Shown: positions 7,519-58,878, numbered from the stretch's first letter. The stretch is DNA of 64,000 nucleotides from an uncultured Fibrobacteraceae bacterium (GCA_964559455.1 CAZLHO010000006.1:17627-81626), one strand, 5' to 3'. Numbers and translations: made by a program. Notes: generated by a model from the sequence alone, not told the origin.

Positions 7519-8367
7519 TTGCGGCGGTCGATTCAGGGCATGATGCACGCCCTGAACCTGAAACGAGCGGGCCTTCCGGCCCTGATCTCCGCGGTCGCGC
7601 TGACGATCCTGATCGCGGCCGTCGCCGCGCCCGGCACCGGAGCGCGGGAAGGCGCGCCGGCCGCGCACCGGGAACTGGAATGCGGCACCTGCCACGCCCC
7701 TCGAGCGGAGGCCGTGACCGCCGCCGCCGGCCGCATCGCTCCGGCCCGACGTTCCTGCCGGGCCTGCCATGTGCTCGCCGACCGGACCGACGCGACGGCC
7801 ACGAACTTCCACGACGACGACGGGCGCGACTGCCGCGACTGCCACTCCTTTCACGAGCCGGCCCGGCTGCGGGCGGGCGAGGTGGAGTTCGTCTACGCCT
7901 ATCGGGATGAGGACCTGCGCGAACAGTGCGCCTCGTGCCACGGGCAGGACGGGGATCTGGCCCTGCTGTCGCCGGGGCACCGCGAGGCGGGCAGGAGCCT
8001 CTACCACGTCGACGCCTACCGGCTGGCGAGGCTCTCGCCCTCGGACGGTTGCCTGCGCTGCCATGACAGCGGAGGCGAGGCCGCGGGCGAGGGCGGAGCG
8101 CCGGCCTTCGCGGGCCACCAGGGACATCCCCTGGGCGTGACCGTGCCTCTGGGGCGCGGCACGCCCGGCAACCACATCCGACGGAGCCTGGATCCGCGCA
8201 TTCCCCTCTACTCGGATCGGATCGAATGTCAGACCTGCCACCTGATGGGCGACGAGCGACCGGATCTGCTGGGGCGTTTCGCCGAATCCTACGATCTTTG
8301 CCTCGGCTGCCACGAGCAGCCCTTCCGGCCGCGCGCCGGCGATCTGAGGCTGGCCTCCGTCCGCTGA
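7519..8367 (+). CDS. multiheme c-type cytochrome (7 CxxCH), membrane-anchored or secreted
   Basis: N-terminal hydrophobic segment. CxxCH motifs: CGTCH, CRACH, CRDCH, CASCH, CLRCH, CQTCH, CLGCH. Confidence 0.8.
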   Translation: MRRSIQGMMHALNLKRAGLPALISAVALTILIAAVAAPGTGAREGAPAAHRELECGTCHAPRAEAVTAAAGRIAPARRSCRACHVLADRTDATATNFHDDDGRDCRDCHSFHEPARLRAGEVEFVYAYRDEDLREQCASCHGQDGDLALLSPGHREAGRSLYHVDAYRLARLSPSDGCLRCHDSGGEAAGEGGAPAFAGHQGHPLGVTVPLGRGTPGNHIRRSLDPRIPLYSDRIECQTCHLMGDERPDLLGRFAESYDLCLGCHEQPFRPRAGDLRLASVR

Positions 8368-8375
8368 CGCGCGAC

Positions 8376-8397
8376 GGCCGCGCCTGACGGCGCGGCC
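8376..8397. terminator. GC hairpin between convergent cytochrome genes
   Basis: GGCCGCGCC-tgac-GGCGCGGCC: perfect 9-bp stem with a 4-nt loop, lying between the stops at 8367 (+) and 8425 (-). Confidence 0.35.
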
Positions 8398-8424
8398 GCG
8401 CGATATCCCGGCGATCGTTTCCCT

Positions 8425-9645
8425 CTATTTCTTGTGACAGGTCACGCACAGATCCATGTTCGGATCCAGCGGCAGATACTGCGGGAAATCGGCGCCGTGC
8501 AGCTGGTGACAGCTGAGGCAGGTCACCGGTTCCCCGGTCCGCTCGTCGATGACGTCCGGACCCACCGGATGCGAGGAGCGGTGGGCGGCCACGTGGCAGT
8601 CGGCGCAGGCCGCGACCGCGTCCGCGGTGAGAAAGGCAGTCTCGGGCGAGCCGTGGGGCACGTGGCATTCGGTGCAGTCCATGCCGTCGTGGGTCGCGTA
8701 CATCGCCTTGGGCTTCTCGGCCGTTCCCTCGAAGTGACAGCGCATGCAGAGCACGCCCTGCGGGGCCGACAGCAGCCCGGCGCCGTCGGCGGCGTGGGGG
8801 GCGTGGCAGTCCGTGCAGGAGCTCTCGTGGTCGAGGTGGCCGTTGTAGTCGGTCTCGAGATCGGCCTGCACGCCGCGATGGCAGCGAAGGCAGAGCGCGC
8901 GACCGTCGCCGGCGATGGCGAAGCCCGCGTCGGGGGCCGGATCCCCATGGCAGGTCTTGCAGTTTCCGCCCGCGAAGGGGGCGTGCCTGTTCTCGCGCAG
9001 GAGGCCCGGGAGCTCCGCCGCGTGGGGCGCGTGACAGGTCGTGCAGTCGGAGGCGCTCAGGTCTCGGCCCTGGTGCGTGCCCGCGAAGCCGGCGCCTCCG
9101 TCGTGGCAGGTGAAACAGAGTCCGGGCACGTCCCGGACCAGGATGCCGGGATACGCCGAGCCGTGGGGCGCGTGGCAGGCGCCGCAGTCGCCGTCGGCTA
9201 CGGGGGCGTGGGGATGGGGCCGCTCGGTCCAGCCGGCGGCCACGGGATGGCAGGAGGCGCAGAGATCCGCGGTGGCGCGGCGCAGCTGGTCGGGATGGTC
9301 CGAGGCGTGGGGGTCGTGACAGGAGCCGCAGGCGCCCTCGCGGACCGGGGCGTGAGGCGCGGCAGGATCCGCCGCCGCGATGTCGTCGTGGCAGCGGGCG
9401 CAGAGCCGCGCGGGCTCCTCCCCCAGCAGGGCCGCGTGGCGCGAGGCGTGGGGGTTGTGACAGGCCGAGCAGCGGCCGTCGGCGAAGACCGTGTGGCGGT
9501 GCCGGGCGGAATCCAGCGCGCCGATGTCGGCGTGGCATTCCAGGCAGACGCCGGGCTCGTCGACGGGCGCGATCGCGCCGGCGCTCCCGGCGGCGAAGGC
9601 CGCGGAAGACAACAGAAGGCCCAGGAGGCGTATCCGGCGGTTCAT
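8425..9645 (-). CDS. multiheme c-type cytochrome, 16 CxxCH, secreted
   Basis: Start ATG at 9645 (MNRRIRLLGLLLSSAAFAAG, a signal peptide). I count 16 CxxCH motifs in ~406 aa (e.g. CLECH, CSACH, CARCH, CGSCH, CASCH, CGACH, CFTCH, CTTCH, CKTCH, CLRCH). The upstream extension of the ORF to 10704 is frame shadow. Confidence 0.85.
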   Translation of the reverse strand: MNRRIRLLGLLLSSAAFAAGSAGAIAPVDEPGVCLECHADIGALDSARHRHTVFADGRCSACHNPHASRHAALLGEEPARLCARCHDDIAAADPAAPHAPVREGACGSCHDPHASDHPDQLRRATADLCASCHPVAAGWTERPHPHAPVADGDCGACHAPHGSAYPGILVRDVPGLCFTCHDGGAGFAGTHQGRDLSASDCTTCHAPHAAELPGLLRENRHAPFAGGNCKTCHGDPAPDAGFAIAGDGRALCLRCHRGVQADLETDYNGHLDHESSCTDCHAPHAADGAGLLSAPQGVLCMRCHFEGTAEKPKAMYATHDGMDCTECHVPHGSPETAFLTADAVAACADCHVAAHRSSHPVGPDVIDERTGEPVTCLSCHQLHGADFPQYLPLDPNMDLCVTCHKK

Positions 9646-11621
9646 GGTCGACCTCCCTCGGCGCCGGGATGACAGATGTCGCAGGCGCCGCTCGAGAACG
9701 GATCGTGCGCGTTGCGCTGGATCAATCCGGCCGTGCTCGCGGCGTGGGGGTCGTGGCAGTGACGGCAGTCCAGCTCTTCGCCGGCGACGCCGAGGTGCAG
9801 GGCGCGGAAGTCGGCGTCGTCCCCGTCGTGGCAGTCGAGGCATTGGCCGGGCACCGCGGCGGCGAGCAGGGTGGCTTCGTCGCTCAGGTGCGGCAGGTGA
9901 CAATCGAGACACGAACCCTCGGCCGCCGGGGCGTGGGCCTCCTGCGTGGCGATGCGCTCGGCCAGCTCGCCGTGGCAGGTGGCGCAGAGGTCGGCGGGAG
10001 CGAGAGGCAGCAGCCCTCGGAGTCCTCCCGCGTGCGGCAGATGGCAGGCGGTGCAGTTCCCCGCCACGTAATCGGGGTGGGCGCTGGTCGCCGCCGCCGC
10101 CGCCCCGGAATCGTCGTGACAGTCGGCGCAAAGCGACGCCTGGGACCGCAGGAGCAGCCCGTCGTGGCCGGCCGCGTGCGGAGCGTGGCAGCCGCCGCAG
10201 TCGGCGTCTGCGAACGGCGGATGGACGACCGCCATGTCGGATGCGGCCATCTCGGACTCGTGGCATCGCGCGCAGAGGTCGTCGCCCGAGGCCCGCAGCA
10301 GGGCGGTCTCGGCCGAGGCGTGGGCGGCGTGGCACGCGTCGCAGCCGTCGGTCTGCAGAGGCTTGTGGACGCTGCGGCTGCGCAGCCAGCCGTCGGCGTC
10401 GTCGTGACAGCCGGAGCAGAGGTCGAAGCTGTCGGCGACCGAGAGCGCGGGAAAGTCCGAGCCGTGGGGAAGGTGGCAGTCCAGGCAGGATCCGCCGGCG
10501 AAGGCGGCGTGGGCTCCGGGCGACTCCATCTCGACCCTCTGGCCGGCGTGGCAGCCCAGGCAGAGCTCGTTGACGTCTCCATCCACCAGGTGGTCGCCGA
10601 CGCGGCCGTGGGCCTGGTGGCAGAGAGTGCAGTCGCGGCCGACGGGATCGTGGCCCGAGGGCTTGTGCAGGGATTCCTCGACGTGGTCGTGGCAGTCCAG
10701 GCACAGCTCCGTCGCCGGCCTTGCCAGCAGGGCCGCCCTGGGCGAGCCGTGCGGATCGTGGCAGGAGGTGCAGGCGCCGTCCGCCACCGGAGGGTGGGGG
10801 TCTTCACCGGCCATCTCGTCGGCGTCGTGACAGACGAGGCAGAGCGTGTCGGCGTCGTTTTCGTTCAGGGCGAAGGGCCGATCCCCTTCCGGGTCGGCGT
10901 GGCAGGAGGCGCAGTCGCCGTCGGCCACCGGGCCGTGGATCGAGGCGCGCAGGAGCGACCTGGAATCGGAGGAGTGGGGGGAGTGGCAGGTGCCGCATCC
11001 GTCTGCGGGGACGGCATAGCCGCTGTGCGCCTGGACGACGGAACGATCCCCGATGTCGTGGCATTGGGTGCAGAGGTCGCCTGCGGGCAGGCGCAGCAGG
11101 CCGGGCTGGTCGCCGCCATGGACGACATGGCAGGAGGCGCAACCCTCCTCGAGGGGAGGATGCCTGTGTTCGAGGCGGAAGGCCCCGGCGTCGTGGCAGG
11201 TGAAGCAGAGATCGCCCTGGGGCGCGGGCAGCAGGCCGGCGTTGTCGGCGGCGTGGGGGTCGTGGCAGGTTTCGCAAAGCCCCCGGGCGGCGGGCTCGTG
11301 GAGGAATGCCCCGTCGAGGCCCAGCGCGGCGTCCTCGTGGCAAAGGCGGCAGAGGGCGCGCCCCGTCTCTTTGAGCCGCAGGGCGCCGACCAGGCCGTGG
11401 GGCTTGTGGCAGTCGCCGCAGCGCTTCTGGGCGAAGGGCTCGTGACGGACCCGGCCGTCGATATCGGCCAGTTCGTGGCAGCCGAGGCAGCCGCCGTCGT
11501 CGCCGAAGCGGCGGCCGCGCTTGATCTGGGCCTCGGCTTCCGGAGGCAGACAGGCGGTCGCCGCCAGTAGCACGGCCGCGAGGATCGGCCAGCGGCGGGG
11601 GATCGGGAATCGCAGGGCCAT
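9642..11621 (-). CDS. multiheme c-type cytochrome, 26 CxxCH, paired-CxxCH repeat architecture, secreted
   Basis: Signal peptide (MALRFPIPRRWPILAAVLLAATA). 26 CxxCH in 659 aa, arranged as ~13 tandem units of the form L-CxxCH-D...(18-22 aa)...CxxCH-xPH. The stop overlaps the start of the 16-heme gene (ATGA). Confidence 0.85.
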   Translation of the reverse strand: MALRFPIPRRWPILAAVLLAATACLPPEAEAQIKRGRRFGDDGGCLGCHELADIDGRVRHEPFAQKRCGDCHKPHGLVGALRLKETGRALCRLCHEDAALGLDGAFLHEPAARGLCETCHDPHAADNAGLLPAPQGDLCFTCHDAGAFRLEHRHPPLEEGCASCHVVHGGDQPGLLRLPAGDLCTQCHDIGDRSVVQAHSGYAVPADGCGTCHSPHSSDSRSLLRASIHGPVADGDCASCHADPEGDRPFALNENDADTLCLVCHDADEMAGEDPHPPVADGACTSCHDPHGSPRAALLARPATELCLDCHDHVEESLHKPSGHDPVGRDCTLCHQAHGRVGDHLVDGDVNELCLGCHAGQRVEMESPGAHAAFAGGSCLDCHLPHGSDFPALSVADSFDLCSGCHDDADGWLRSRSVHKPLQTDGCDACHAAHASAETALLRASGDDLCARCHESEMAASDMAVVHPPFADADCGGCHAPHAAGHDGLLLRSQASLCADCHDDSGAAAAATSAHPDYVAGNCTACHLPHAGGLRGLLPLAPADLCATCHGELAERIATQEAHAPAAEGSCLDCHLPHLSDEATLLAAAVPGQCLDCHDGDDADFRALHLGVAGEELDCRHCHDPHAASTAGLIQRNAHDPFSSGACDICHPGAEGGRP

Positions 11622-11665
11622 GGCTCCACCTCTGCGTCCCCGGGCGCGGCCCGGGGCGTCGTGAT

Positions 11666-13297
11666 CTAGGAATCTCCGGCGAAGTAGCGTTCGATCCGGT
11701 CGTCATGGCGGACGATCGTCGATCGCTCCTTCAGCAGGGACAAATGCTCGTCCATGAGCGCATCGAACTTGCGCTGGAACACGGCCTCGCGGATCGGCAT
11801 CTCGACTTCCTCGATGCTCCTGGGCTGGCCCTGCCGGCGCCCGCGCAGCTTGAAGACCATCCAGCCGGAGGGGATCTTCACGGGCGAACTCACGTCGCCT
11901 TCCTTCATCTCGGCCAACTGCTCCTTCATGGAGCCGGAGAATACATTCTCCGGTGACCAGCTGGGCTCGCCGCCGCCGCCGGCCTTCAGCAGGTCGCGGA
12001 CGAAATCGATGTCGCCGCCTGCCGCCAGGCGCGCGGCCGCGTCGGCGGCCGTCGCCTCGTCATCCAGGACGATCACGTCGAGAAGAACCTCCTCCGGCCC
12101 GCGGAAGCGGTCCAGGTTCTCCCGGTAGAAGGCGTCGAACTCTTCGCGACTGAAAACGATCTCCGGCACGATGATCTCGTTCAGGTACATGTTGATCAGC
12201 ATCTCGCTCCGCTTGTCCCGGACCAGCTTCGCGACGGCCGGGTCGTCCAGCAGGCCGCGCCGGGCGGCGGCGGCCCGCAGGATCAGGTCGTGGCGGACTT
12301 CGTCGCAGCCGCGCCCGTAGAGCTCGTTGAAGCCGGCGTTGCGCAGGTCCATCTGACCCTTGGCGATCGCCCGGCGCAGATCCTTCTCGGTGACGGCCCT
12401 GACGCCGGGGGCGCTGAAGGCCGGTGCGGACCCTCCCTCCATGAACGCGGCGGTTCCCATAGCCGCGGAGTCCCCCCTGACCCTTTCCAGGATCGCGGCG
12501 TTGCGCAGCAGGGGCGCCTCGGCGTCCAGATCCTCCAGGAAGGTCTTCCAGGCGGCCTCGCGCTTCTCGACCGCGTAGTAGCGGCGGATACGTGGCAGGG
12601 CCGCAGCGAAGGCCGTCTCGTCGGGGTCCAGCTTCTGCTCGACGCGAAGGACCGAGAAGATGTTGTGGAAGGGGAAGACCTGGCTGAGCTCGCCCTGGCG
12701 CGTGGCCTCGGCGGGCCCGCGAAGCTGGGGATGGAGGTCGCCCCAGATCACGAGATCGCGGAGGCCGCCCTCGTGGCGCCGGTTGTCCACGGAAACGGAC
12801 ATGGCCAGGCTGTCCATCGGGGCGCCGGCGAGCAGCGCTTCGCGGAGCTTCCCGGCGTCCTCGGCGGTGCGCGCGGAGATCTGGCGCACCTGGATCCGGC
12901 GATAGTAGGTCCGCCAGTATTCCTGGATCTCCTCGTCCGAGATCTCGATCTCGGGGTCGAAGGCCCGGGAGGCGAACGCGGAGGCGGCGGCCGATTCCCT
13001 CATCTCGGCGAGCTCGTCGACGAGGGCCGGTTCCTCGCCCATGCCCATCGCCTCGGCCTGCTGCAGCAGCAGCAGGTCGTTGACCGCCTTGTCCAGGAGC
13101 TTGCCCAGGAAGGCCGCGTTCATGCGCTCCGCTCCGCCGGAGGCGTGCGCCGCCATCACCATGTCGTCCATGGTCGCCGCCGTGATCGCATCGCCGTTGA
13201 TGGTGATCAGCGTGTCGCCGGGCGCGTCGGCGGCGAAGGAGAACACCGGCAGCAGGAGCAGCAATACGGCCGCCGGCAGAAGACGATGCGGGGTCAT
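11666..13297 (-). CDS. periplasmic peptidyl-prolyl cis-trans isomerase, SurA/PpiD-like (parvulin domains)
   Basis: Signal peptide. SurA-like N-terminal chaperone region plus parvulin-type rotamase segments (IQVRQISARTAEDAGKLREALLAG...; second domain VLLDVIVLDDEATAADAAARL...). Confidence 0.7.
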   Translation of the reverse strand: MTPHRLLPAAVLLLLLPVFSFAADAPGDTLITINGDAITAATMDDMVMAAHASGGAERMNAAFLGKLLDKAVNDLLLLQQAEAMGMGEEPALVDELAEMRESAAASAFASRAFDPEIEISDEEIQEYWRTYYRRIQVRQISARTAEDAGKLREALLAGAPMDSLAMSVSVDNRRHEGGLRDLVIWGDLHPQLRGPAEATRQGELSQVFPFHNIFSVLRVEQKLDPDETAFAAALPRIRRYYAVEKREAAWKTFLEDLDAEAPLLRNAAILERVRGDSAAMGTAAFMEGGSAPAFSAPGVRAVTEKDLRRAIAKGQMDLRNAGFNELYGRGCDEVRHDLILRAAAARRGLLDDPAVAKLVRDKRSEMLINMYLNEIIVPEIVFSREEFDAFYRENLDRFRGPEEVLLDVIVLDDEATAADAAARLAAGGDIDFVRDLLKAGGGGEPSWSPENVFSGSMKEQLAEMKEGDVSSPVKIPSGWMVFKLRGRRQGQPRSIEEVEMPIREAVFQRKFDALMDEHLSLLKERSTIVRHDDRIERYFAGDS

Positions 13298-14379
13298 TCG
13301 GAAACCTCCGGAACGGGCGGGGCGGAACGAACCATCTCATCCAGGAAGGCATCGGCGAAGTCGAGGGCCAGTTCTCCGAGCGACGATCGCCGGACCGCGC
13401 CGAAGAGGAATTCGCCTCCCGGTCCCGCGAATTCGTACTCGCGCGCGACCAGGATGCGGCCGTCGCCGGCGTCCAGCATCCTGGCGCCGAAGGCGATCGC
13501 GGGTTCCGGGGCCAGGGAATCGCCGCCGAAAACATCGAAGCGGTCGATCTCGCCGGTGACGACCACATCGACGCCCAGATCGTCGTGCAGGGCGCTCAGG
13601 GTCTGCAGATCGATTCCTCCCCGTGGGGCGACCTGTTTATCCTGGAACAAGAAATTAGCAATCCCAGGCTCTATAACAAGATAGCCCCTGGACACCAGGC
13701 GAGAAAGAAGAAAATCCACCAAAACGGTGGCTGATTCGGCAGGGACCTCTCCCGTGAATGAGAAGGGCACCAGGGCGACAGTCGTTCGCGGGCGCTCGGG
13801 CGGGGGCGAAGGGGTCGAGAAGGACGGGGCGAGGGCGTCGACGAGTTCCGTGACCGCCACCGCCGCCAGTTCCGTGAGGGTCTCGGGCATGCCGACGCCG
13901 AAGAGTCCGACCAGATCCGGAGCCGCGATCGCCCGGGATTCGGCGGCGATCACCCGTGCGGTCGCGGGGTCGAGCAGGCGCAGGGAGACGGCGATCTCGA
14001 GCGCGGGTCGCTCGCGATAGATCCCGACGGTCCCGGTCAGCAGCAGCCCGGCGCCGGTCTCGGCTGCCACGAGGCGAGCTCCCTCGCGGTCGACCATGCC
14101 CACGGCCCGGATCCGGTGGCGTCGCAGGACGGGGCGGATCTCCCGCTCGGCGAGGAATGGCACCCCCCGCTCGGCCAGCGCCGCGTGGAGCAGCATCACG
14201 ACGGTGTCGCGGGCGGCCGCCGCGCCGGTGGGGTTGGCCAGCGGCAGCAGGGCCAGGGTGGCTCCCGTGGCGGGCCCGTCCCCGGAATCCGGAGGCGCGG
14301 ATTGCGCACACGCCGGTGCTCCCGCCAGCAGCAGGGCCGCCAGGAACAGGACGAGGGGATGAAGCCGTGCGCGCGTCAT
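13294..14379 (-). CDS. secreted protein with two tandem CsgG/LpoB-like (TolB-N-like) domains
   Basis: Signal peptide. Two repeats each carrying an LPFxNxTG ... LLTG/VVTGEI pattern (TLALLPLANPTG...LLLTGTVGIY and TVALVPFSFTGE...VVVTGEIDRF). ATGA overlap with the PPIase gene. Confidence 0.45.
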   Translation of the reverse strand: MTRARLHPLVLFLAALLLAGAPACAQSAPPDSGDGPATGATLALLPLANPTGAAAARDTVVMLLHAALAERGVPFLAEREIRPVLRRHRIRAVGMVDREGARLVAAETGAGLLLTGTVGIYRERPALEIAVSLRLLDPATARVIAAESRAIAAPDLVGLFGVGMPETLTELAAVAVTELVDALAPSFSTPSPPPERPRTTVALVPFSFTGEVPAESATVLVDFLLSRLVSRGYLVIEPGIANFLFQDKQVAPRGGIDLQTLSALHDDLGVDVVVTGEIDRFDVFGGDSLAPEPAIAFGARMLDAGDGRILVAREYEFAGPGGEFLFGAVRRSSLGELALDFADAFLDEMVRSAPPVPEVSE

Positions 14380-14386
14380 GATCGTC

Positions 14387-14965
14387 TCAGTCGATCAGGG
14401 TGTCGAGGCAACGCGCCACGCAGCGGCGGGTGACTTCGCTGCGGGATTTCTGGGCGGTGCCGAAGAGTGTCGACCAGAAGCCGCGGCTGTCCTCGGTATG
14501 GGTGGCCGACCAGACCGTGATGCCGGTCTCGCACTCCACGAGCCGGGTGTCGAGAGTGACCACGGATTCCGCTCCGGAGCCGCCGCGCGACGACCCCGAT
14601 TCGCTGACCGTGGCCAGGAACAGGCCCTGGACCTGGAGTTCGCGGCCGACGGCGACGATGTCCTCCCGGGTCATCTGGGCGGTGCTGGTCCAGCCGCGCT
14701 CCAGCAGGGCGCGCTGGACCTCTCCGGGCTCGACGACGTCGAAGACCTCCGCCGCCAGCAGTTCGGTCAGGAAGATGCGCGTCGCACGCGCTCCCGCCCC
14801 CTGGTCGGTCGTCAGGTTCTCGAAGGGGACGACGGCGACCTTTTCCAGGAAACCGAAGTTGTACTCCGGGTGCAGGAAGGTTGTCGGAGCCAGGCCCGCG
14901 CAGCCCGCGCAGGCCAGCAGCGCCGCCAGAAGGCCCGTCGCCATGATCTTCTTCATGCTCACCAC
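14387..14965 (-). CDS. lipoprotein with a single CsgG/LpoB-like domain
   Basis: Lipobox LLAC. VAVVPFENLTTDQG...ELLAAEVFDVVE is characteristic of the LpoB/CsgG N-domain fold. Confidence 0.5.
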   Translation of the reverse strand: MVSMKKIMATGLLAALLACAGCAGLAPTTFLHPEYNFGFLEKVAVVPFENLTTDQGAGARATRIFLTELLAAEVFDVVEPGEVQRALLERGWTSTAQMTREDIVAVGRELQVQGLFLATVSESGSSRGGSGAESVVTLDTRLVECETGITVWSATHTEDSRGFWSTLFGTAQKSRSEVTRRCVARCLDTLID

Positions 14966-14977
14966 CGTTTCCCGGCC

Positions 14978-17074
14978 TCAGAAGCCGATGCGGAGGCCCT
15001 GCTGGAGCGTGTTCCGCTCCTGGCCTCCCGCCTCGCTGTAGTCCAGCTCCGAGTACCTGATGTAGAGGTTGCTCCTGGGACTCAGATTGTAGTTCAGGTT
15101 CGCGCTGAATTGCACGGTCCTGACGTTCTCCGCCTCGAGTATGTAGGCCTGCCCGGTCAGGGACGCCTTTGGGATCGGGGTCCAGCTCAACAGATAATTC
15201 TGCGAGACGTTGTCCTGCCGGTCGTCGACCAGGTTCAGGCTGCCGCGCATGTGGACGGTGCGGCTGAGGCGGAGGTCGCCCGAGAATTCCATGTCGCGTC
15301 GGACCCGGGCTTCTGGCTCGGAGGCGACGTCGGTGCGCCGCACTCCGAAGCCGAGGGTCACGATGAAGGAGGAGGCCAGGGGGCCGCTCAGGCGGCTGCG
15401 GGCGGACCAGGTGTCGGTGACGCCGCCGGCCGCATCCAGGTCGGAACGGACGTAGCCGGCGTCGATGGAGGCCGTGAGCAGCCGCAGGGGGCTGCCGTCG
15501 GCGCCCGCCGAGAGGGAGTGGTAGAGCTGCGTGCGCTCGCCGTCGACCCGCTCTTCGCGGCGCGAGGCCGAGAATCGGGAGGAGAGGGTCGGCAGCGGGC
15601 GGGCGACCACGCCGTAGCTCAGGGAGCGCGAGTCCAGATCCTGGACGGCGCCGCCGGCGCTCTGCCGCGACCAGGTTCCGCCGAGGGAATGCTCAACGAA
15701 CCCGCCCTGGCGCACGTTCAACCGCAACGAGGCGTCGGCGTTCCGGCGACCGTCCGGCAGGCTGCCTCCCTGCTGGTAGAGGTAGGAGCCGCCGCCCGAG
15801 ATTTTAACGCGGTCGGAAAGGAGGTAACGGGCGGAGAGATCGGCCAGGTGCATGTCCTCGCTACGCGTCTCGCGACGGACGCCGGGACGGGGCAGGAAGA
15901 CCTGGATCTCGGTGACCAGCGCCCGGGCCACCTCGTTGACGCCCCGGCTGACGGCCTTCACGTAGCGTGCGCTCACGGCCTGGAAGGTGATCTCGTAGCG
16001 GCGCTGCGCGGGATTGAAGACGAAGGCGGGGAAGGCCTGCGCCTCGGTCCAGACCTCGTTGTCGGCGGAGACGTAGACGCTCCATTCCAGACCGCTGCCG
16101 GACACCCTGTCGGTGAAGACGTAGACGGCCGCGACCTCCCGGGCGAAGCCGAGGTCCACGCCCAGGTTCCAGTCGGCGCCGGCGCCGCCGAGGTCGATCT
16201 CCGGCAGGACCGGCGACCCGAGGTCGCCGTCGATCAGGGCGGGAGCCGGGGCCAGCGGATCGCGGTCCGGCGTCGGATCGAGCGCCCGCAGGCCGGCGGC
16301 CGGGATCAGCGTCTCGAGCAGGACGTCGCCGGTCAGCGACTCGTCCGTCATGCTGAAGCGCCGGTAGGTGTAGGTGCCGCCCAGCGACAGGCGGTCGTCG
16401 GCCAGTTCCCTCAGGTCGCCGACGATGCGGGCCCGGTGCTCGGTGCGGTCGCTCTGCAGGCCCGAAACGACGTTCTCCAGCCAGGCCCGGTTCAACGAGT
16501 AGGACAGCGATGTCCATCCCACGACCTGGTCGACCGAGGCGCGCAGCTGCTCGTTGCGCGTGTTCCGCCCGCCGACGGCGGTGCGGTCGAGGACCTCGTC
16601 CACGGAATAGTCCGCCCGCAGCAGGGGCAGGTCGGATCTCAGGGTCTGCAGCGAGAAGTGGGTGTTGTCCGCGACGAGGGTGCCCGGGGTGTCCGAGAGT
16701 TCGGTCTCCCGCCGACGCCAATCCGCGCCGAAGACGAAGTCCGGGTGGCGCCAGTCCAGTTCGGCGGCGGGCTGGAGCTCCTCGCGGCGGCTGTCCAGGG
16801 TCGGCCCCTGGTCGATGTCGTAGCGGTAATAGCGGAACGTGGCGCGGGCGGTCAGGCGGGGCAGGAAGGCGTGGCGCCAGGCGGCGAAATATTCCTGGCG
16901 AAGGGTGTCCTCTTCCCGGTCGGCCGTCTCGGTCTGGACGGCGGCGATGTCGACGCGGCCGCCGATGTCGGGCGCGGCCGCCGCCGACCCGCCGAGGAGC
17001 AGGAGGATCGGCGCCGCCGTGATCGACAGCCGGGCGAGGCGGTGCAGCGTTGAGGTCATCGGGATTCGATCCAC
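14978..17074 (-). CDS. outer-membrane beta-barrel protein with an inserted F5/8-type-C (discoidin)-like domain
   Basis: Signal peptide. Alternating amphipathic beta-strand pattern rich in Y/R/D. C-terminal ...LRIGF with a terminal Phe, as in OMPs. Internal ~120-aa segment (WSVYVSADNEVWTEAQAFP...YVKAVSRGV) resembles a discoidin domain. The true start may be the Met at 17059. Confidence 0.55.
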   Translation of the reverse strand: MDRIPMTSTLHRLARLSITAAPILLLLGGSAAAAPDIGGRVDIAAVQTETADREEDTLRQEYFAAWRHAFLPRLTARATFRYYRYDIDQGPTLDSRREELQPAAELDWRHPDFVFGADWRRRETELSDTPGTLVADNTHFSLQTLRSDLPLLRADYSVDEVLDRTAVGGRNTRNEQLRASVDQVVGWTSLSYSLNRAWLENVVSGLQSDRTEHRARIVGDLRELADDRLSLGGTYTYRRFSMTDESLTGDVLLETLIPAAGLRALDPTPDRDPLAPAPALIDGDLGSPVLPEIDLGGAGADWNLGVDLGFAREVAAVYVFTDRVSGSGLEWSVYVSADNEVWTEAQAFPAFVFNPAQRRYEITFQAVSARYVKAVSRGVNEVARALVTEIQVFLPRPGVRRETRSEDMHLADLSARYLLSDRVKISGGGSYLYQQGGSLPDGRRNADASLRLNVRQGGFVEHSLGGTWSRQSAGGAVQDLDSRSLSYGVVARPLPTLSSRFSASRREERVDGERTQLYHSLSAGADGSPLRLLTASIDAGYVRSDLDAAGGVTDTWSARSRLSGPLASSFIVTLGFGVRRTDVASEPEARVRRDMEFSGDLRLSRTVHMRGSLNLVDDRQDNVSQNYLLSWTPIPKASLTGQAYILEAENVRTVQFSANLNYNLSPRSNLYIRYSELDYSEAGGQERNTLQQGLRIGF

Positions 17075-17151
17075 CCTTGAATGACGCCCGGGCCAACGTC
17101 GGCCCGGGCGCCATCCATTCTAGACCATATAGCGGTCTCGATGCCACCGAA

Positions 17152-18240
17152 CTACGGAACGACGACGACCTCGATGTGGTCGAACTCGTCCTTGTTGTGG
17201 CACTTGTTGCACAGCGAACGCTGGTTGGTGCTGTTGTACGGATCCGGAATCTCGTAGGAGCCGGACTCGTCGCCGTCCTCGTGCAGCAGCGTCACGCTGA
17301 AGTCCCACCGGCCGGCGTCCGGCGCCGAGGAGGCGTGGGCGCGGTGGCAGGAGATGCAGGAGACCTGGGCCGAGCCAGCGGGCGGGCCGCTGACCTGGTC
17401 GGTCGTGTTGTCGGGATGCTCGAAGGGAACCGCGGCCAGGTACGAGTCGTCCACGGTGGCGCCGCTCTGGTCCTCGGTGCCGTTGTAGCGGTTGTAGATC
17501 CCCTGGATGGTACCGCCCATGGCGCGGCCCGAGGGATGGATCAACGCTCCGCTGTTGTGGAAGTTGCCGTGGCAGTTCGCGCACCAGGCGCTCATCCCGC
17601 TCTTGTAGGCGGTGTGGTTGCTGTTGGACTCGAAGCCGCCGGACCACGGGAAGATCGAAAGGCCCTCCGCGTCGGGGGCCGCGTTCGCGAACACGGCGAC
17701 GCCGTCCTGGACGACCCGGTTGGCGCCGTACAGGAAGCGGAAGTCCGTGGTGCCGTGCGGGTCGTGGCAGCTGGTGCAGCCGAGATCCGCGGCCGCGAAG
17801 CCGCCGCCGGGAGCCGTGCTCAGCGTGGCGTCCGGATACAGGCCGTAACCGGGGGCGTTCAGGTTGTGGCCCGCGGCGTCGCCGTCGATCCAGTTCTCGA
17901 CCAGGTGGCCGTCGTGGCCGTCGTTCAGGTTGTCCTCCAGCAGGAAGACGAAGTTGCCCGCGCCCTTCAGGCCCGGAGGCGCCATGGGATCGGGATCGGT
18001 GATCGGGAAGGGCTGGTCGAGGTGATCGTGGCAGCCGATGCAGACCTCGCTGGGCGTGGCCTCGTTAAGCAGCCAGCTGTTCGGGCCGAAGTCGGGACCG
18101 ATCTGGTCGACCGTGACGCCGTCCTGGCTGTTGTGCATGGTGTGGCAGCCGCTGCAGTTGGCGACGCCGCCATCGTGGAACGCATAGGCCGGGAAGGCCA
18201 GCAGGCCGAGGCCGAGCGCGAGAAGGATGATCTTCCTCAT
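17152..18240 (-). CDS. multiheme c-type cytochrome (6 CxxCH), secreted
   Basis: Signal peptide MRKIILLALGLGLLAFPAYA. CxxCH motifs: CSGCH, CIGCH, CTSCH, CANCH, CISCH, CNKCH. Less Arg-biased composition than its neighbours. Confidence 0.8.
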   Translation of the reverse strand: MRKIILLALGLGLLAFPAYAFHDGGVANCSGCHTMHNSQDGVTVDQIGPDFGPNSWLLNEATPSEVCIGCHDHLDQPFPITDPDPMAPPGLKGAGNFVFLLEDNLNDGHDGHLVENWIDGDAAGHNLNAPGYGLYPDATLSTAPGGGFAAADLGCTSCHDPHGTTDFRFLYGANRVVQDGVAVFANAAPDAEGLSIFPWSGGFESNSNHTAYKSGMSAWCANCHGNFHNSGALIHPSGRAMGGTIQGIYNRYNGTEDQSGATVDDSYLAAVPFEHPDNTTDQVSGPPAGSAQVSCISCHRAHASSAPDAGRWDFSVTLLHEDGDESGSYEIPDPYNSTNQRSLCNKCHNKDEFDHIEVVVVP

Positions 18241-18371
18241 TCCGTTACCTCCACGTACGGAAAGAGCGCAAAACGAACGGACGGATTGAGAGTCGGAAAA
18301 CCTGAAATGCAGACGGGGGTCCCTCCTTCACGTTGTTGGTAGATGTCTCGTGACGCACGTCGCATCACCTT

Positions 18372-19424
18372 TCAGGAACGCGAGCCGGGTCCGGCGTCGT
18401 GGATCCGGATCCTGATGGATTCCGGGATCCGGCAGACCTGCACGCGGCTCTTGAAGACCTGGCCGACGTAGATCCTGCCGTCGCCGTCGACGGCGAGCAG
18501 GCCGGGATAATAGAACCAGCCGGGCGCGGCGCCCTTGCCGCCGAACTCGCCGGCGAAGCGGCCGTCGGGGCGGTAGCAGAGGACCGCGAAGCGGTTCTTG
18601 TCCAGGACGAGCACCGTTCCGTCCGGGGCCACCTCGGCGGCGATCGGGAAGGCCAGCTGACCCACCTTCCCGCCGGGATAGCCGAACGAGCGCAGGTGCT
18701 CGCCGTCGAGATCGAAGACCCGGACCGTGCCCAGCGTCGGGATGGGCACGTAGACCAGGTCGTCGTGCACGCTGATCTTGCCGATGCCTTGTCCGTAGAC
18801 CTCTTCGGGGTCCAGGGAGTCCAGCACCGGAAAGCGCTTCAGCAGGGAGCCGTCGCGGCCGTGGACCTCGACGGCACGCGTGGCGTGCTCCGAAACGACG
18901 ACGCGGCCGCCGGAGGCGACCGCGACGCTGCGGTAGTCGGCAGGCAGTGCGCCGCCGTGATGTTCCAGGTTCACGAGGCCCAGGAACATGCCGTCGAAAT
19001 CGCAGCGCACCAGTTCCCGCCGGTTGCCGACGTTGGCCAGGATGAGGATGGTGCCCTCGGGTTCGACGGTGAGGTCGGTGGGGGTCGAAAAACGGTCGCC
19101 GCCGGAGAAGGAGAAACGGAAGGCGCCGCTCTTGTCGAAGATAAGGATCCGGTTGCGGCCCATGTCGGCCACCAGGATCTCGCCGGTGAGGGGATCGTGG
19201 TGGATGGCGGCCGGCCGGCCGAAGTCATCGTTGACTCCGGGAGGGGAGAGAAGATGCGAGAAATCGGAAGGGACGGCCAGGGGACCGCCGCGGTTTCCGG
19301 CGTTGTCGCTTGCAGGAGCGCTGGAGCAACAGGCAACGACCACGAACAACAGGAAGCCGCCCCCCATGAGGAGACGACGTCGGTAGTCGCGGCCGTGGCG
19401 CTGTTTTGTCGTTGTCGGGCTCAT
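18372..19424 (-). CDS. NHL-repeat (six-bladed beta-propeller) protein, secreted
   Basis: Repeated ~40-aa blades with G-x-hydrophobic-D motifs (PAAIHHDPLTGEILVADMGRNRILIF; PDGTVLVLDKNRFAVLCY; DGRIYVGQVFKSRVQV). A hydrophobic N-terminal segment may start at the internal Met (19367). Confidence 0.65.
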   Translation of the reverse strand: MSPTTTKQRHGRDYRRRLLMGGGFLLFVVVACCSSAPASDNAGNRGGPLAVPSDFSHLLSPPGVNDDFGRPAAIHHDPLTGEILVADMGRNRILIFDKSGAFRFSFSGGDRFSTPTDLTVEPEGTILILANVGNRRELVRCDFDGMFLGLVNLEHHGGALPADYRSVAVASGGRVVVSEHATRAVEVHGRDGSLLKRFPVLDSLDPEEVYGQGIGKISVHDDLVYVPIPTLGTVRVFDLDGEHLRSFGYPGGKVGQLAFPIAAEVAPDGTVLVLDKNRFAVLCYRPDGRFAGEFGGKGAAPGWFYYPGLLAVDGDGRIYVGQVFKSRVQVCRIPESIRIRIHDAGPGSRS

Positions 19425-19604
19425 TGCTAAAAGGGCAATCCTCGGAAATCATGTTGGATGTTTCACAGCTCGACATAAAACCTACACCACCGACGGGTGT
19501 TTTTTCAAGGGGTTCATGACAATTCGCTGACATTTTTTTGTTTTATCATGAGGTCGATTTTCATTCCCGATTCGCGGGTTCGATACCAGTCGGTATGTTA
19601 ATTA

Positions 19605-19642
19605 ACGAAAAGACAACGCCCTGGACCATGAGGCCCAGGGCG
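19605..19642 (-). terminator. putative intrinsic terminator of the hemCDBL operon
   Basis: 7-bp stem (GCCCTGG / CCAGGGC; 19618-24 / 19635-41) with a 10-nt loop. It is followed on the minus strand by T-rich gttgtcttttcgt, 36 nt past the hemL stop. Confidence 0.35.
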
Positions 19643-19677
19643 CGGAGGAGGCATATCAAAGAGTCCGGATCTCTTGT

Positions 19678-20973
19678 TTAATCGTTCACGAGATTCCCCA
19701 TCGCCTTGCCCGCGGCCGCCACGGTGCGCGCGATGTCCTCGTCGCCGTGGGCCGCCGAGACGAAGCCGACCTCGTAGCCCGAGGGGGCCAGGTAGACGCC
19801 CTCGTCGATCATCATCCTGTGGAAGCGGCCGTAGGTCGCCATCGCTCCCCCGTCGACCGCGTCGAAGCGGCGCGGCGCGTCGGCCTGGAAGGCGGTCCAG
19901 AAGATCGAGCCGACGCGGACCACCGTGGCGGTGACGCCGGCGGCAGCGGCCGCGGCGCGCAGGCCGGCCTCCAGGGTCGCGCCCTTGCGTTCCAGTTCCT
20001 CGTAGAAGCCGGGGCGGCCGGTCTTCTCGAGCGTGGCCAGGCCGGCGGCCATGGCCACGGGGTTGCCGCTGAGGGTGCCCGCCTGGTAGACGGGGCCGTT
20101 GGGCGAGACGTGATCCATCAGCGACCGCGAGGCCGCGTAGGCGCCCACGGGCATGCCGCCGCCGATGATCTTGCCGTAGGTCGCGATGTCGGGCGTGATG
20201 CCGTAGAGCATCGCGGCGCCGCCCGGCCCCACGCGGAACCCGTTGATCACCTCGTCGAAGATCAGCAGGGCGCCGTGCTTCGCGGTCAGCTCGCGGCACT
20301 TCTTCAGGAACTCGGGCCGCTGCACGAGCAGGCCGGAGTTGGCGGGGATCGGCTCGATGATCAGGGCGGCCGTCTTGTCGCCGTGCTCGGCGAAGAAGGC
20401 CTCCAGCGCCGCGTCGTCGTCCAGGGGCAGCACGGCCGTATGCTTCGTGAAGTCGGCCGGCACGCCGCCGCTGCTGGGGGTGCCGAAAGTGGCCAGGCCG
20501 CTGCCGGCCTGCACCAGCAGGCTGTCGACGTGGCCGTGGTAGCAGCCGTCGAACTTCAGGACCAGGTCGCGGCCGGTGACGCCGCGCGCCAGGCGGATGG
20601 CGCTCATCACGGCCTCGGTGCCCGAGCTGACGAAGCGCACCTGGTCGAAGAGGGGCAGCCGGGCCAGGAAGGCCTCGGCCAGCAGCACCTCACGGCGGCT
20701 GGGTGCGCCGAAGCTGGCGCCCTCGCGCACGGCCTCTTCGATCGCCGCGCGCACCTCGGGGTCGTCGTGGCCCAGGATCATCGGACCCCAGCTCTGGCAG
20801 TAGTCGATGAAGCTGCGCCCGTCCTCGTCGACGAAGCGGCCGCCCGAGGCCTTCGCGAAGAAGACGGGGTCGCCGGGCACCGAGCGGAAGGCCCGCACCG
20901 GACTGTTCACTCCGCCGGGCAAAACCTTTCGGGCCCGTTCCCACCAGCCGGCGTTTCCCGGACGTTCGCTCAT
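19678..20973 (-). CDS. hemL: glutamate-1-semialdehyde 2,1-aminomutase
   Basis: PLP-aminotransferase class III motifs (LIFDEVINGFR; GKIIGGGMPVGAY with the Lys). Start ATG at 20973 (MSERPGNAGWW...). Confidence 0.9.
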   Translation of the reverse strand: MSERPGNAGWWERARKVLPGGVNSPVRAFRSVPGDPVFFAKASGGRFVDEDGRSFIDYCQSWGPMILGHDDPEVRAAIEEAVREGASFGAPSRREVLLAEAFLARLPLFDQVRFVSSGTEAVMSAIRLARGVTGRDLVLKFDGCYHGHVDSLLVQAGSGLATFGTPSSGGVPADFTKHTAVLPLDDDAALEAFFAEHGDKTAALIIEPIPANSGLLVQRPEFLKKCRELTAKHGALLIFDEVINGFRVGPGGAAMLYGITPDIATYGKIIGGGMPVGAYAASRSLMDHVSPNGPVYQAGTLSGNPVAMAAGLATLEKTGRPGFYEELERKGATLEAGLRAAAAAAGVTATVVRVGSIFWTAFQADAPRRFDAVDGGAMATYGRFHRMMIDEGVYLAPSGYEVGFVSAAHGDEDIARTVAAAGKAMGNLVND

Positions 20974-21950
20974 CGGATCCATCCCTTCCGCAGGGCCTCG
21001 CGGCCGTGATAGGTGATGATCAGGTCGGCGCCGGCGCGGCGCATCGAGAGCAGGTTCTCGAGGACCAGGGCCTGCTCGTCTCCGTAGCCGGCGGCCGCCG
21101 ACGCCTTCACCATCGAATACTCGCCGCTGACGTTGTAGACGCAGACCGGGCGCAGGGTCTCCTCGCGCAGCCGGGCGACGACGTCGAGGTAGGCCAGCGC
21201 GGGCTTGACCATGACCATGTCCGCGCCCTCGTCGATGTCCAGCAGGGCCTCGAGCAGGGCCTCGCGCCCGTTGCGGAAGTCCATCTGGTAGGTCTTGCGG
21301 TCGCCCTGCGGCGCGCTGTCGCAGGCGTCGCGGAAGGGGCCGTAGTAGGCGCTGGCGAACTTCGACGAGTAGGCCAGGATCGAGACGTCCTCGAAGCCCT
21401 CCTCGTCCAGGGCGTCGCGGATGCCGATCACCCGGCCGTCCATCATGTCGCTGGGGCTGACGATGTTCGCGCCGCAGCGGGCGTGCAGCACGGCCATGCG
21501 CGCCAGCTGATCGACGCTGGGGTCGTTGACGACCTTGCCGTCCTCCAGGAAGCCGCAGTGCCCGTGGGTGGTGTAGGCGCAGAGGCAGACGTCGGTGATC
21601 AGGATGACGTCGTCGCCGAACTCCTTGCGCAGGGCGCGCAGAGCCTGGGCGATCACGGTGTCCTCGTTCACGGCGTCGTCGCCGTGGGGGGTCTTGGCGT
21701 CCTCGGCGGGCACGCCGAAGAAGAGGTGCGACTTCAGGCCCAGCTCGAGGTCGGCGCCGACCTCGGCCACGAGCTTGTCCACCGAGACGTGCCCGACCCC
21801 GGGCATGCTGGGGATCTCCTCCTCGACGCCCTTGCCCGGCACCACGAAGTGCGGGGTGATCAGGTGGCGGGGGTGGACCTCGGTCTCGGCGACGAGCTCG
21901 CGCATCAGCGGCGTCGTGCGCAGGCGGCGGGGGCGTTGGGTCAGTCTCAT
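20970..21950 (-). CDS. hemB: porphobilinogen synthase (delta-aminolevulinic acid dehydratase)
   Basis: ALAD motifs (active-site Lys region VKPALAYLDVV; metal site DVCLCAYTTHGHCG). Start at the internal ATG 21950 (MRLTQRPRRLR...). ATGA overlap with hemL. Confidence 0.9.
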   Translation of the reverse strand: MRLTQRPRRLRTTPLMRELVAETEVHPRHLITPHFVVPGKGVEEEIPSMPGVGHVSVDKLVAEVGADLELGLKSHLFFGVPAEDAKTPHGDDAVNEDTVIAQALRALRKEFGDDVILITDVCLCAYTTHGHCGFLEDGKVVNDPSVDQLARMAVLHARCGANIVSPSDMMDGRVIGIRDALDEEGFEDVSILAYSSKFASAYYGPFRDACDSAPQGDRKTYQMDFRNGREALLEALLDIDEGADMVMVKPALAYLDVVARLREETLRPVCVYNVSGEYSMVKASAAAGYGDEQALVLENLLSMRRAGADLIITYHGREALRKGWIR

Positions 21951-41969: not shown

Positions 41970-42297
41970 GGAAATCTTGAACTTGACGTATCGAAATTAT
42001 CGTGGAGAATCATAGCCGCGGGCCCGATGGTCTGCGGCTGTTTCCTATCTCCCGGACAGCGTCGATTCACAGAATTTATCTAGTCGGCTCAACACCATGT
42101 ACTAACGCATCTCCCAAGATTCAACGGACGTCAACTAGCGACTACAAATCAAGTTTCCCGGTCGAGATGGGGGGTCTGTGGCCAGCATTTCGCCGCCTAG
42201 CAATCCCTGCCTGAAAGCAAACGCAGGGGCTGGAAGTCGTTAAGTCTGAACGAGTAGTATTTCAATCCATGTAAGCCGCGCAGAAAGGTACTCGCCC

Positions 42298-44850: not shown

Positions 44851-44943
44851 GCCCGTTCCGGGCGTCTTCGGGGGCGGCGTTGTTGACAATGATTCTCTTG
44901 ACCATGCAGTCTCAAAGATCCCTTGACACGCCCTTTGGGCCTG

Positions 44944-46174: not shown

Positions 46175-46285
46175 GCGCCGCCCGGCGTGGTGGTGTATCC
46201 TATCCTGAGGAGCCGGAGGCGGCGGGGCCCCCGTCAGCCCCCTTCGAACGCCCGGACGCCGCCGTCGGATAATCAGACGCCACCG

Positions 46286-51373: not shown

Positions 51374-51385
51374 TCCGTCGACGGG

Positions 51386-58773: not shown

Positions 58774-58878
58774 ATGAGGGGTTCAACCAAATCGCGCCGA
58801 CGGATGTCTCATGGTATGTGGAGCCACCTGCATTTGCCTGCCTCGGTGGTCGTCCCTACCCGCGAAAGAGAGAGAACG

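Follow-up and report, generated by a model that had tools for sequence, protein, structure and literature searches.

A probable omcS-plus-companion cytochrome cluster lying within the heme-biosynthesis genes of an uncultured, FCB-like bacterium

A core operon encoding a 16-heme cytochrome, a 26-heme cytochrome, a peptidyl-prolyl isomerase (PPIase) and a beta-propeller has been described (Skennerton 2017, PMC5539420). In the syntrophic sulfate reducers that are partners of ANME, the cassette was later named the OetABI conduit, in which OetA is periplasmic, OetI is the porin and OetB is extracellular (Murali 2023, PMC10553843). Its order is hmlA-hmlB-PPIase-..-DUF799 lipoprotein-omb-propeller-NHL, with the "DUF799 family lipoprotein" appearing under that name in the S5 table, and the published OetI tree takes in Zixibacteria, Calditrichaeota and Geobacter sulfurreducens WP_010943136.1 (PMC10553843). 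An omcS-companion (osc) operon of G. sulfurreducens was reported by Shen et al. (2025, Cell Chem Biol 32:239), as cited in PMC13194489, and the genetics, as summarized there, give the companions roles in folding, secretion and morphology. Similar kinds of parts occur in Uet of Tenderiales (a PPIase, UetB; NHL proteins, UetHI; a barrel, UetC; and multiheme cytochromes) and in PCC3 of Gallionellaceae, which has periplasmic cytochromes with 21-27 hemes (PMC10734462). OmcS has also been reported in Krumholzibacteria, and one such metagenome-assembled genome (MAG) encodes Cyc2 as well.

We analyzed a 64-kb stretch of DNA (the window; 64,000 nucleotides in all). Within 12 kb, it encodes four secreted cytochromes with 7, 16, 26 and 6 CxxCH motifs (55 in total), along with a PPIase, two related periplasmic proteins or lipoproteins, an outer-membrane beta-barrel with a CBM32/discoidin-like insert and an NHL-repeat propeller. 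Six-frame translation of the whole window gave 56 CxxCH motifs, 55 of them in the four cytochromes, so their density in the cluster is far above chance. The cytochromes of the original prediction were recounted, and their heme numbers and coordinates hold. CxxCK and Cx3-4CH motifs were not identified in the cytochromes by a motif scan, and an Rfam scan of the window returned nothing. We conclude, with a probability of about 0.85, that this is an omcS-plus-companion cluster of the kind variously described as Geobacter osc, OetABI and the "16-heme/26-heme operon". The cluster copies an already described and widespread omcS osc/Oet cluster and is thus not a new kind of system. The claim that its accessory set corresponds to no described module is contradicted by the Skennerton 2017 operon, the Murali 2023 Oet cassette and the Shen 2025 osc operon.

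As in the osc operon, the gene for an OmcS-family hexaheme cytochrome precedes those for the barrel, the small DUF799/LpoB-like lipoprotein, its larger paralogue and the PPIase, and beta-propeller genes are close by. Unlike the osc operon, which has three OmcS paralogues, the window copy has a single one, lacks the OscD-like propeller of about 470 amino acids and is embedded in a heme-biosynthesis operon. The equivalences used below (OscE for the barrel, OscF for the small lipoprotein, OscG for its paralogue and OscH for the PPIase) are putative, and were assigned from the order and sizes of the genes and by comparison with unlabelled Geobacter-type contigs. With the Oet/hml cassette the cluster shares the 16-heme and 26-heme cytochromes, the PPIase and a six-bladed propeller, as well as the order of DUF799 lipoprotein, barrel (omb) and NHL genes. 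In contrast, the Oet cassette was read by its authors as a conduit for interspecies electron uptake and often includes OmcX and Apc2a cytochromes, neither of which was seen here. The MtrCAB (Shewanella) and Pcc (Geobacter) systems also combine a large barrel with MtrA-like periplasmic multiheme cytochromes. The window cluster differs from them in its CBM32 insert, in cytochromes that have 16 and 26 rather than 10 hemes, in the lack of MtrC/OmcA, and in its additional PPIase, LpoB-like proteins and NHL propeller. The resemblance to Uet and PCC3, compared by description, is in composition only; their cytochromes include undeca-, tetra- and triheme forms, and an OmcS homologue is not reported in PMC10734462.

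The hexaheme protein (17152..18240, minus strand) is an OmcS-family cytochrome and a candidate nanowire subunit. It matches OmcS (PDB 6EF8/6NEF) from mature residue 1 through the C-terminus (phmmer, E 1.5e-39), a homology that had been overlooked although the six hemes were counted correctly. In addition to the six CxxCH motifs there are eight other invariant His residues, among them His16 in CHTMH. Geobacter OmcS polymerizes via a histidine that ligates a heme of the next subunit, and the position of this histidine is retained in the window homologue (His16). The need for OmcS filaments in Geobacter physiology is disputed in the literature (PMC11077965; PMC13194489).

The OmcS-like gene and the barrel gene (14978..17074, minus strand; likely start at M6, position 17059) lie only 78 bp apart. 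The barrel is a member of the OetI/OscE family. A first AlphaFold2 model built from three sequences was poor (pLDDT 59) and was replaced by a later one. The barrel has 28 strands, and the predicted discoidin-like insert was borne out as a CBM32/discoidin domain at about residues 247-400, between strands 11 and 12; strand parity in the model would place it in an extracellular loop. This domain, and not the membrane strands, is the most conserved part of the family. Among solved barrels, Foldseek places MtrB closest (TM 0.41-0.44, 8-11% identity). MtrB itself has 26 strands. No Pfam or NCBIfam family, MtrB/PioB included, matched the barrel above its cut-off. The protein contains no CxxCH and so is not a Cyc2-type heme-porin fusion. 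The family profile did, by comparison, match the barrel on a Geobacter-type OmcS contig with 99.7% probability (E 5e-26), with the insert covered and 18% identity in the profile alignment.

Next in the operon is a 192-amino acid outer-membrane lipoprotein (14387..14965, minus strand; OscF position) with LpoB/CsgG/GNA1162(DUF799)-like character. Its lipobox Cys22 is invariant, and its family gives weak Pfam matches to LpoB (12/15), CsgG (8/15) and GNA1162-like proteins (5/15). DUF799/LpoB-like lipoproteins were matched on two Geobacter-type contigs, L101 and L102 (E 6e-40 and 1e-39). The following gene (13294..14379, minus strand; OscG position) encodes a paralogue, a secreted 361-amino acid protein with two LpoB/CsgG/FlgO-like domains. 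Its family aligns with that of the small lipoprotein (hhalign 99.4%, E 4.7e-22), the second domain also being matched, and has Pfam matches to FlgO (6/14) and CsgG (4/14). There is no Cys among its invariant columns and hence no conserved lipobox Cys, so the proposal of two CsgG/LpoB-type lipoproteins was half right: it applies to the 192-amino acid protein and not to its paralogue.

The PpiC-type peptidyl-prolyl isomerase/chaperone (11666..13297, minus strand; OscH position) is predicted to be periplasmic. Its PPIase domain is clear (Rotamase_2, 90 bits, 2.7e-25) and it has a homologue on L101 (HMM, E 7e-17). The SurA-like label does not extend to the SurA equivalog, where the protein scores 21.8 bits and the cut-off is 394. 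The first gene of the operon encodes the NHL-repeat propeller (18372..19424, minus strand; start called by gene callers at M20, 19367). The propeller is confirmed by Pfam NHL at 41.6 bits and also matches DUF5128, a six-bladed propeller. It is present in the window cluster where the OscD-like propeller is missing. The latter was not found in the window or in the related loci L001 and L008, whereas homologues of the 464-amino acid propeller of locus L002 occur in about 35 other loci.

The last two genes of the operon encode large secreted cytochromes built of paired-CXXCH repeats. The 26-heme protein (9642..11621, minus strand; hemes spaced by 22-28 residues; no conserved lipobox) scores 302 bits against the DmsE family TIGR03508 (cut-off 192), as seven repeated stretches. 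The MtrA-like 16-heme protein (8425..9645, minus strand; about 25 amino acids per heme) scores 162 bits, under the same cut-off, and matches Paired_CXXCH_1 in eight stretches (Pfam, 259 bits). It starts with MNRRIRLL, and its ATG overlaps the stop codon of the 26-heme gene (ATGA), indicating translational coupling. The closest solved relative of both is chain A of 6R2Q, which we take to be MtrA (E 5.5e-25 for the 26-heme and 1.4e-15 for the 16-heme protein). Judging from their sequences, they appear to be linked to MtrA/DmsE by their repeat units, and are not decahemes. The 7-heme c-type cytochrome (7519..8367, plus strand; Paired_CXXCH, c3 and c7 Pfam matches) is secreted and its gene is convergent with the end of the main operon. 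Gene callers predict a protein of 274 amino acids, so that translation probably begins at the ATG at 7543. Full-length 7-heme orthologues occur in L002 and L008, and in Zixibacteria and Ignavibacteria loci the gene adjoins the NHL gene.

Related loci were sought with an alignment of the barrel, the first scan yielding no relatives; this was replaced by a degenerate DNA pattern derived from the insert domain. The pattern matched 90 GTDB genomes, with about nine chance matches expected by estimate, and seven of the matched loci had no barrel. The other 83 share the order NHL, OmcS-like, barrel, small lipoprotein, two-domain paralogue, PPIase, 26-heme and 16-heme. Downstream of the barrel, adjacency holds in series in 68/70, 61/61, 40/43, 23/25 and 6/7 loci, the first three figures being for the small lipoprotein after the barrel, the 361-amino acid paralogue after the small lipoprotein and the PPIase after the paralogue. 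The OmcS-like gene is upstream of the barrel in 52 of 66 loci, and in 20 of the 27 that reach far enough the NHL gene lies upstream of the OmcS-like gene. The genomes belong to Ignavibacteria, Zixibacteria, Krumholzibacteriota, Eisenbacteria, Calditrichota, Acidobacteriota and Deltaproteobacteria, most of them to the first six; contrary to what had been supposed, the cluster is therefore not unexpected in an FCB-like background. The MAG of one locus (L032) is a member of the published OetI tree (PMC10553843).

The closest GTDB clusters have only about 35% barrel identity to the window. Heme counts of 26, 16 and 6 are constant in every compared locus, as is 7 in full-length small cytochromes, down to 33-35% barrel identity; the 16 and 26 hemes are kept in five of five compared loci, and the 26 also in the GTDB loci. 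A search for the G. sulfurreducens locus with OmcS residues 1-156 returned short fragments only, and two fragment-bearing contigs (L101 and L102) were taken instead. The same gene order was found on such contigs, where OmcS is 60-65% identical to that of G. sulfurreducens. L102 has three tandem OmcS paralogues and a homologue of the propeller (471 amino acids), like omcS-omcT-oscC-oscD, and the paralogue on L101 carries a long Ig/PKD extension that is missing from the window copy.

One flank of the cluster consists of hemE, hemN, hemH, hemY, a ccsB-like gene and hemA, and the other of hemC, hemD, hemB and hemL (the last identified by Aminotran_3 and operon position). These flanks are real, as originally described, and are confined to the lineage of the window (the window, L001 and L008/L009). 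The hemCDBL operon is set apart from the cytochrome operon by a terminator-like hairpin that follows hemL (19616..19643, minus strand); it has a 12-bp stem, in which 9 pairs are G-C, and a T-rich tail. A promoter of the cluster's own probably lies in the AT-rich spacer at 19425-19615, and the cluster would form its own transcription unit despite its position inside the heme operon. We thus rejected a general design in which heme supply is placed beside heme consumers, given the lineage-restricted flanks and the hairpin that parts hemL from the cluster.

The net function is likely to be extracellular electron transfer, to minerals, to partner cells or from them; sequence gives no direction of electron flow. 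Roles were assigned to the parts by homology and from the literature. The OmcS homologue would be folded in the periplasm with the PPIase as chaperone and, once exported, would be displayed on the outside of the cell to conduct electrons. Passage through the outer membrane would be provided by the 28-strand barrel, the small lipoprotein and the two-domain paralogue, acting as a cytochrome secretion/assembly channel, as a sheath around an electron-carrying cytochrome, or as both. The MtrA-like 26-heme and 16-heme proteins, at about 25 residues per heme, could serve as long periplasmic heme wires that link the quinol pool of the inner membrane with the complex in the outer membrane, with the NHL propeller and the 7-heme cytochrome as accessory components.

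The same genes might instead encode an Mtr/Pcc-type porin-cytochrome conduit without a filament, in which the barrel sheathes the 16- or 26-heme protein, the OmcS-like protein is a monomeric surface reductase, and the lipoproteins and PPIase serve assembly only. We regard this as possible, if on the improbable side. In its favor are the DmsE-family score of the 26-heme protein, which exceeds the cut-off, the match of this protein to chain A of 6R2Q, and the OetA-OetI-OetB conduit that Murali 2023 (PMC10553843) modeled for the same cassette. However, the barrel has 28 strands, a lectin-like insert and no MtrB/PioB family match in sequence, and the best score to the MtrC/OmcA decaheme family TIGR03507 is 29 bits (cut-off 209); the Shen 2025 genetics, as cited in PMC13194489, also point to folding, secretion and morphology. 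This explanation overlaps with the omcS-companion reading and is compatible with it. The porin-cytochrome likeness of the original prediction stands insofar as this is a cluster of the extracellular electron transfer type with a co-conserved barrel; for the MtrB family, it is one of fold only.

Electron uptake, in which the same parts would bring in electrons supplied by Fe(II), a cathode or a partner cell, seems quite unlikely. It would accord with the composition of Uet and the 21-27-heme cytochromes of PCC3 (PMC10734462), with the proposal that a homologous cassette in ANME partners receives electrons (PMC10553843) and with the Krumholzibacteria MAG that has both OmcS and Cyc2, but neither Cyc2 nor another oxidation marker was seen in the annotated parts of the window. 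We give almost no credence to the idea that these are ordinary periplasmic reductase subunits (Nrf, Hao, Otr or similar) beside an unrelated nutrient porin. There are weak matches to NrfB/NrfH-type heme-packing motifs, yet all fall far under their cut-offs. Pfam and NCBIfam HMMs identified no NrfA/HAO catalytic domain in any of the four cytochromes, there are no partner Fe-S or molybdopterin genes and no CxxCK, and the barrel keeps its cytochrome neighbors in 83 genomes. The two refutations raised with the original prediction, a generic porin and a reductase, thus failed, and the NrfA/HAO reading was rejected.

Within the omcS-companion reading, we offer the doubtful conjecture that the lectin-like insert is the functional heart of the machine, either as a gate or dock for the base of the OmcS filament or as a glycan or mineral binder, with the LpoB/CsgG-like paralogues as a periplasmic ring beneath. 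If true, there would be a dedicated outer-membrane export system for folded holo-cytochromes across FCB phyla and Acidobacteriota, one that in the window lineage needs no OscD propeller and has a physical link to heme supply.

With this cluster, a high-GC, FCB-like uncultured lineage joins the predicted builders of OmcS-type extracellular cytochromes. A nine-gene module is tightly kept in at least seven phylum-level groups, with hemes fixed at 26, 16, 6 and (if full length) 7, and such conservation supports the published view of an ancient and widespread machinery. The 28-strand barrel with its conserved lectin-like insert, the paralogous LpoB-like pair and the dispensable OscD-like propeller may be of use to structural and genetic work on the known system.

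Eight genes form a run on the minus strand, from 19424 down to 8425. In this G+C-rich window (~71%), genes were chosen by third-position G+C. In transcription order, the run encodes an NHL propeller (18372-19424), a 6-heme cytochrome (17152-18240), a 698-aa outer-membrane barrel (14978-17074), a 192-aa lipoprotein (14387-14965), a 361-aa secreted protein (13294-14379), a PPIase (11666-13297), a 26-heme cytochrome (9642-11621) and a 16-heme cytochrome (8425-9645), the ATG of which overlaps the stop codon of the 26-heme gene. The gene for a 7-heme cytochrome (7519-8367, plus strand) is convergent with the operon end. The cytochromes carry 6, 26, 16 and 7 CxxCH motifs, summing to 55 (vs 56 in the six frames of the 64-kb window). 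The gene calls and this count confirm the gene content, heme total and flanks described in the original prediction.

The 6-heme protein is a full-length homologue of OmcS, the nanowire subunit of Geobacter sulfurreducens, and matches OmcS (PDB 6EF8/6NEF, E 1.5e-39) from mature residue 1 through the C-terminal CNKCH. In OmcS filaments, His16 ligates a heme belonging to the adjacent subunit. The motif C9-x-x-C12-H13-T-M-H16 of the window protein is identical and in the same register, and His16 and seven other non-motif histidines are invariant in 13 family members. Both the 26- and the 16-heme protein consist of paired-CXXCH units in series (~25 residues per heme, with a regular spacing of 22-29 residues). 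Their closest solved relative (E 5.5e-25 and 1.4e-15, respectively) is chain A of 6R2Q, which we take as the MtrA subunit of MtrCAB (the table gives another molecule name). The cytochromes could instead have been ordinary reductase subunits of the NrfA or HAO type, but profile and motif searches detected neither a catalytic domain nor CxxCK in any of the four. Heme counts of 26, 16 and 6 are constant across the compared loci, as is 7 in full-length copies of the small cytochrome.

Some variation in these genes was observed. In one GTDB MAG (L067, 4832-7936), the 26- and 16-heme genes form one stop-free ORF with 42 CxxCH, either a natural fusion or the result of a lost stop codon. The 7-heme gene adjoins the NHL gene at the cluster start in L033, L039, L042, L057, L063, L068, L077, L096 and L099 (labelled Zixibacteria or Ignavibacteria, together with some unclassified MAGs); its position after the 16-heme gene in the window differs. 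In the gene calls of L005 (JGI 3300029797, from the window's organism), hemN and the genes for the OmcS-like and 361-aa proteins are split up or cut short, probably by assembly frameshifts. The same genes are intact in ENA assemblies of sister samples.

The barrel model (from a 95-sequence alignment; mean pLDDT 93.1) has 28 strands: 11, then a CBM32-like beta-sandwich insert (about residues 247-400), then 17. Strand parity would place the insert, which follows strand 11, on the extracellular side. The insert is the best-conserved region of the family alignment. The best solved Foldseek match is MtrB (6r2q_B; E 1.7e-10, TM 0.41-0.44, 8% identity), followed by TonB-dependent transporters and pilus ushers.

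In the PPIase, a long N-terminal region precedes a PpiC-type rotamase domain at the C-terminus; comparison with family profiles ruled out a SurA equivalog. Members of the small lipoprotein family (15 in total) weakly match LpoB (12), CsgG (8) and GNA1162/DUF799 (5). Two lipoproteins had been proposed here. The lipobox cysteine is invariant in the family of the 192-aa protein, supporting that assignment, whereas no conserved lipobox cysteine was found for the 361-aa protein, there being no cysteine among the invariant columns of its family alignment. The latter is a paralogue of the small lipoprotein: its N-terminal half matches that family (hhalign 99.4%, E 4.7e-22). One homologue has a second copy of the same domain in its C-terminal half.

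A generic porin unrelated to the cytochromes would not be expected to keep them as neighbours. A word-indexed protein search returned only three barrel homologues, each within this nine-gene arrangement, even at 35% identity. An exhaustive profile search with the barrel found 928 representative clusters, mostly about 700 aa and 231 of them at E<=1e-30. A degenerate DNA pattern derived from the insert domain (covering 85 of 118 family members) matched 90 stretches in GTDB species genomes, and the barrel was confirmed by HMM in 83 of these. Neighbours were sought with HMMs from five loci (that of the window plus four related ones), and a locus entered a count only if its 8-kb block extends far enough. 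The small lipoprotein follows the barrel in 68 of 70 loci, and the two-domain paralogue is present in all 61, the PPIase in 40/43, the 26-heme gene in 23/25 and the 16-heme gene in 6/7. Upstream, the OmcS-like gene was identified in 52 of 66 loci and the NHL gene in 20 of 27. The barrel is thus tied to the cytochromes.

The genomes with this cluster are mostly MAGs of Ignavibacteria/Ignavibacteriales, Zixibacteria, Krumholzibacteriia, Eisenbacteria, Calditrichota and Acidobacteriota (Thermoanaerobaculia and Polarisedimenticolia). Single carriers are from Fibrobacteraceae and Gemmatimonadota, and several are from Deltaproteobacteria, Desulfobacterales, Polyangiaceae and Syntrophobacter.

Similar gene sets have been described. 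The core operon, with a 16-heme and a 26-heme cytochrome, a PPIase and a beta-propeller, was reported in SEEP-SRB1, Desulfuromonadales, Anaeromyxobacter and others (Skennerton 2017, PMC5539420). The order hmlA, hmlB, PPIase, two hypotheticals, DUF799 lipoprotein, omb, beta-propeller lactonase and NHL is given in table S5 of Murali 2023 (PMC10553843), which models the set as an OetABI conduit. The OetI tree of that study (OetI query OEU57520.1) includes G. sulfurreducens WP_010943136.1, Zixibacteria, Calditrichaeota, Thermoanaerobaculia and PJA73705.1 of 'bacterium CG_4_9_14_3_um_filter_65_15'. We identified the barrel of this last MAG (our locus L032) with the window-family HMM (6e-162). In Geobacter, a 2026 paper (PMC13194489) citing Shen et al. 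2025 places omcS, omcT and oscC within the osc (omcS companion) operon, and assigns folding to OscH, secretion to OscE, OscF and OscG, and morphology to OscD.

Two contigs, L101 and L102, were chosen as a bridge to the Geobacter cluster by OmcS fragments 60-65% identical to G. sulfurreducens OmcS. Both have the order OmcS paralogues, propeller-type gene, barrel, small lipoprotein, paralogue and PPIase. The Shen abstract reportedly describes OscH as a prolyl-isomerase chaperone, OscEFG as channel-like and OscD as beta-propeller-like. Over 590 columns, insert included, the barrel of L101 aligns with the family profile (99.7%, E 5e-26). It has VTR where the insert DNA pattern demanded VTE, which is why the pattern missed Geobacter-type genomes. 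The L101 propeller is lactonase-type (372 aa). In L102, three tandem OmcS paralogues precede a 471-aa protein homologous to the ~470-aa propeller whose gene separates the OmcS-like and barrel genes in ~35 loci. The window lacks that propeller and has one OmcS paralogue.

The genes for heme biosynthesis lie on both sides of the cytochrome block, as predicted: hemE, hemN, hemH, hemY, a weak ccsB-like gene and hemA on one flank, and hemC, hemD, hemB and hemL (an Aminotran_3 gene at the expected position) on the other. The product of the 'ccsA-like' gene (1484-2359) scores 69 bits against a CcsB equivalog cut-off of 187.6, and is a divergent cytochrome-assembly-family membrane protein rather than a bona fide CcsB. 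A histidine kinase (24426-25547) is encoded immediately upstream of hemC. Placement of the cluster between hemL and hemE was also seen in L001 and L008/L009, and at no other locus. HemL is 84% and 76% identical to that of the window in L001 and L008/L009, respectively, compared with 49% and 33% for the barrel. The PPIase is 49% and 44% identical, and over 7519-23643 divergence is far more rapid in the cluster proteins than in the housekeeping genes on either side. A terminator-like hairpin occurs downstream of hemL, so the cluster is probably transcribed as a unit of its own.

Elsewhere in the window, a low-GC island (42000-44900; GC 0.515 vs about 0.71 for the rest) contains one 850-aa ORF (42298-44850, plus strand). 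By eye, this runs from a TPR-like N-terminus through a sigma-54-interaction AAA+ domain to a C-terminal Fis-type HTH, and it resembles an NtrC-family enhancer-binding protein gained by horizontal transfer. Within 46187-52699, a 1728-aa subtilase (Peptidase_S8) carries a FlgD_ig-like domain at its C-terminus, which probably prompted an earlier remark on T9SS-type C-terminal domains. The same domain occurs in a 255-aa protein encoded upstream (45407-46174), and a serpin gene (51386-52699) is directly beside the subtilase gene on the opposite strand. Two large tandem paralogues with DUF5916, one also with a CBM9 domain, are encoded at 56101-61605. An MqnC/CofH-like radical SAM gene (36344-37429) is a hint that menaquinone is made by the futalosine route.

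We conclude that the window cluster belongs to a known, widespread cluster type. Homology, constant heme counts, synteny and fold were shown directly. The original interpretation as an extracellular electron transfer cluster with a co-conserved barrel holds. Its accessory set, thought to match no described module, is of the kind described by Skennerton 2017, Murali 2023 and for the osc operon. Nor is the FCB-like host unexpected, given the FCB-group carriers and published reports of OmcS in Krumholzibacteria and of iron-cycling cytochromes in Zixibacteria, Ignavibacteriales, Eisenbacteria and Gemmatimonadota. By analogy with the literature, the OmcS homologue would be the extracellular electron-carrying element, folded by the PPIase, and the barrel and two LpoB-like proteins would provide the outer-membrane passage. 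The barrel may be a secretion channel, the sheath of an electron conduit, or both. Sequence features suggest that the MtrA-like 26- and 16-heme proteins may act as heme wires spanning the periplasm.
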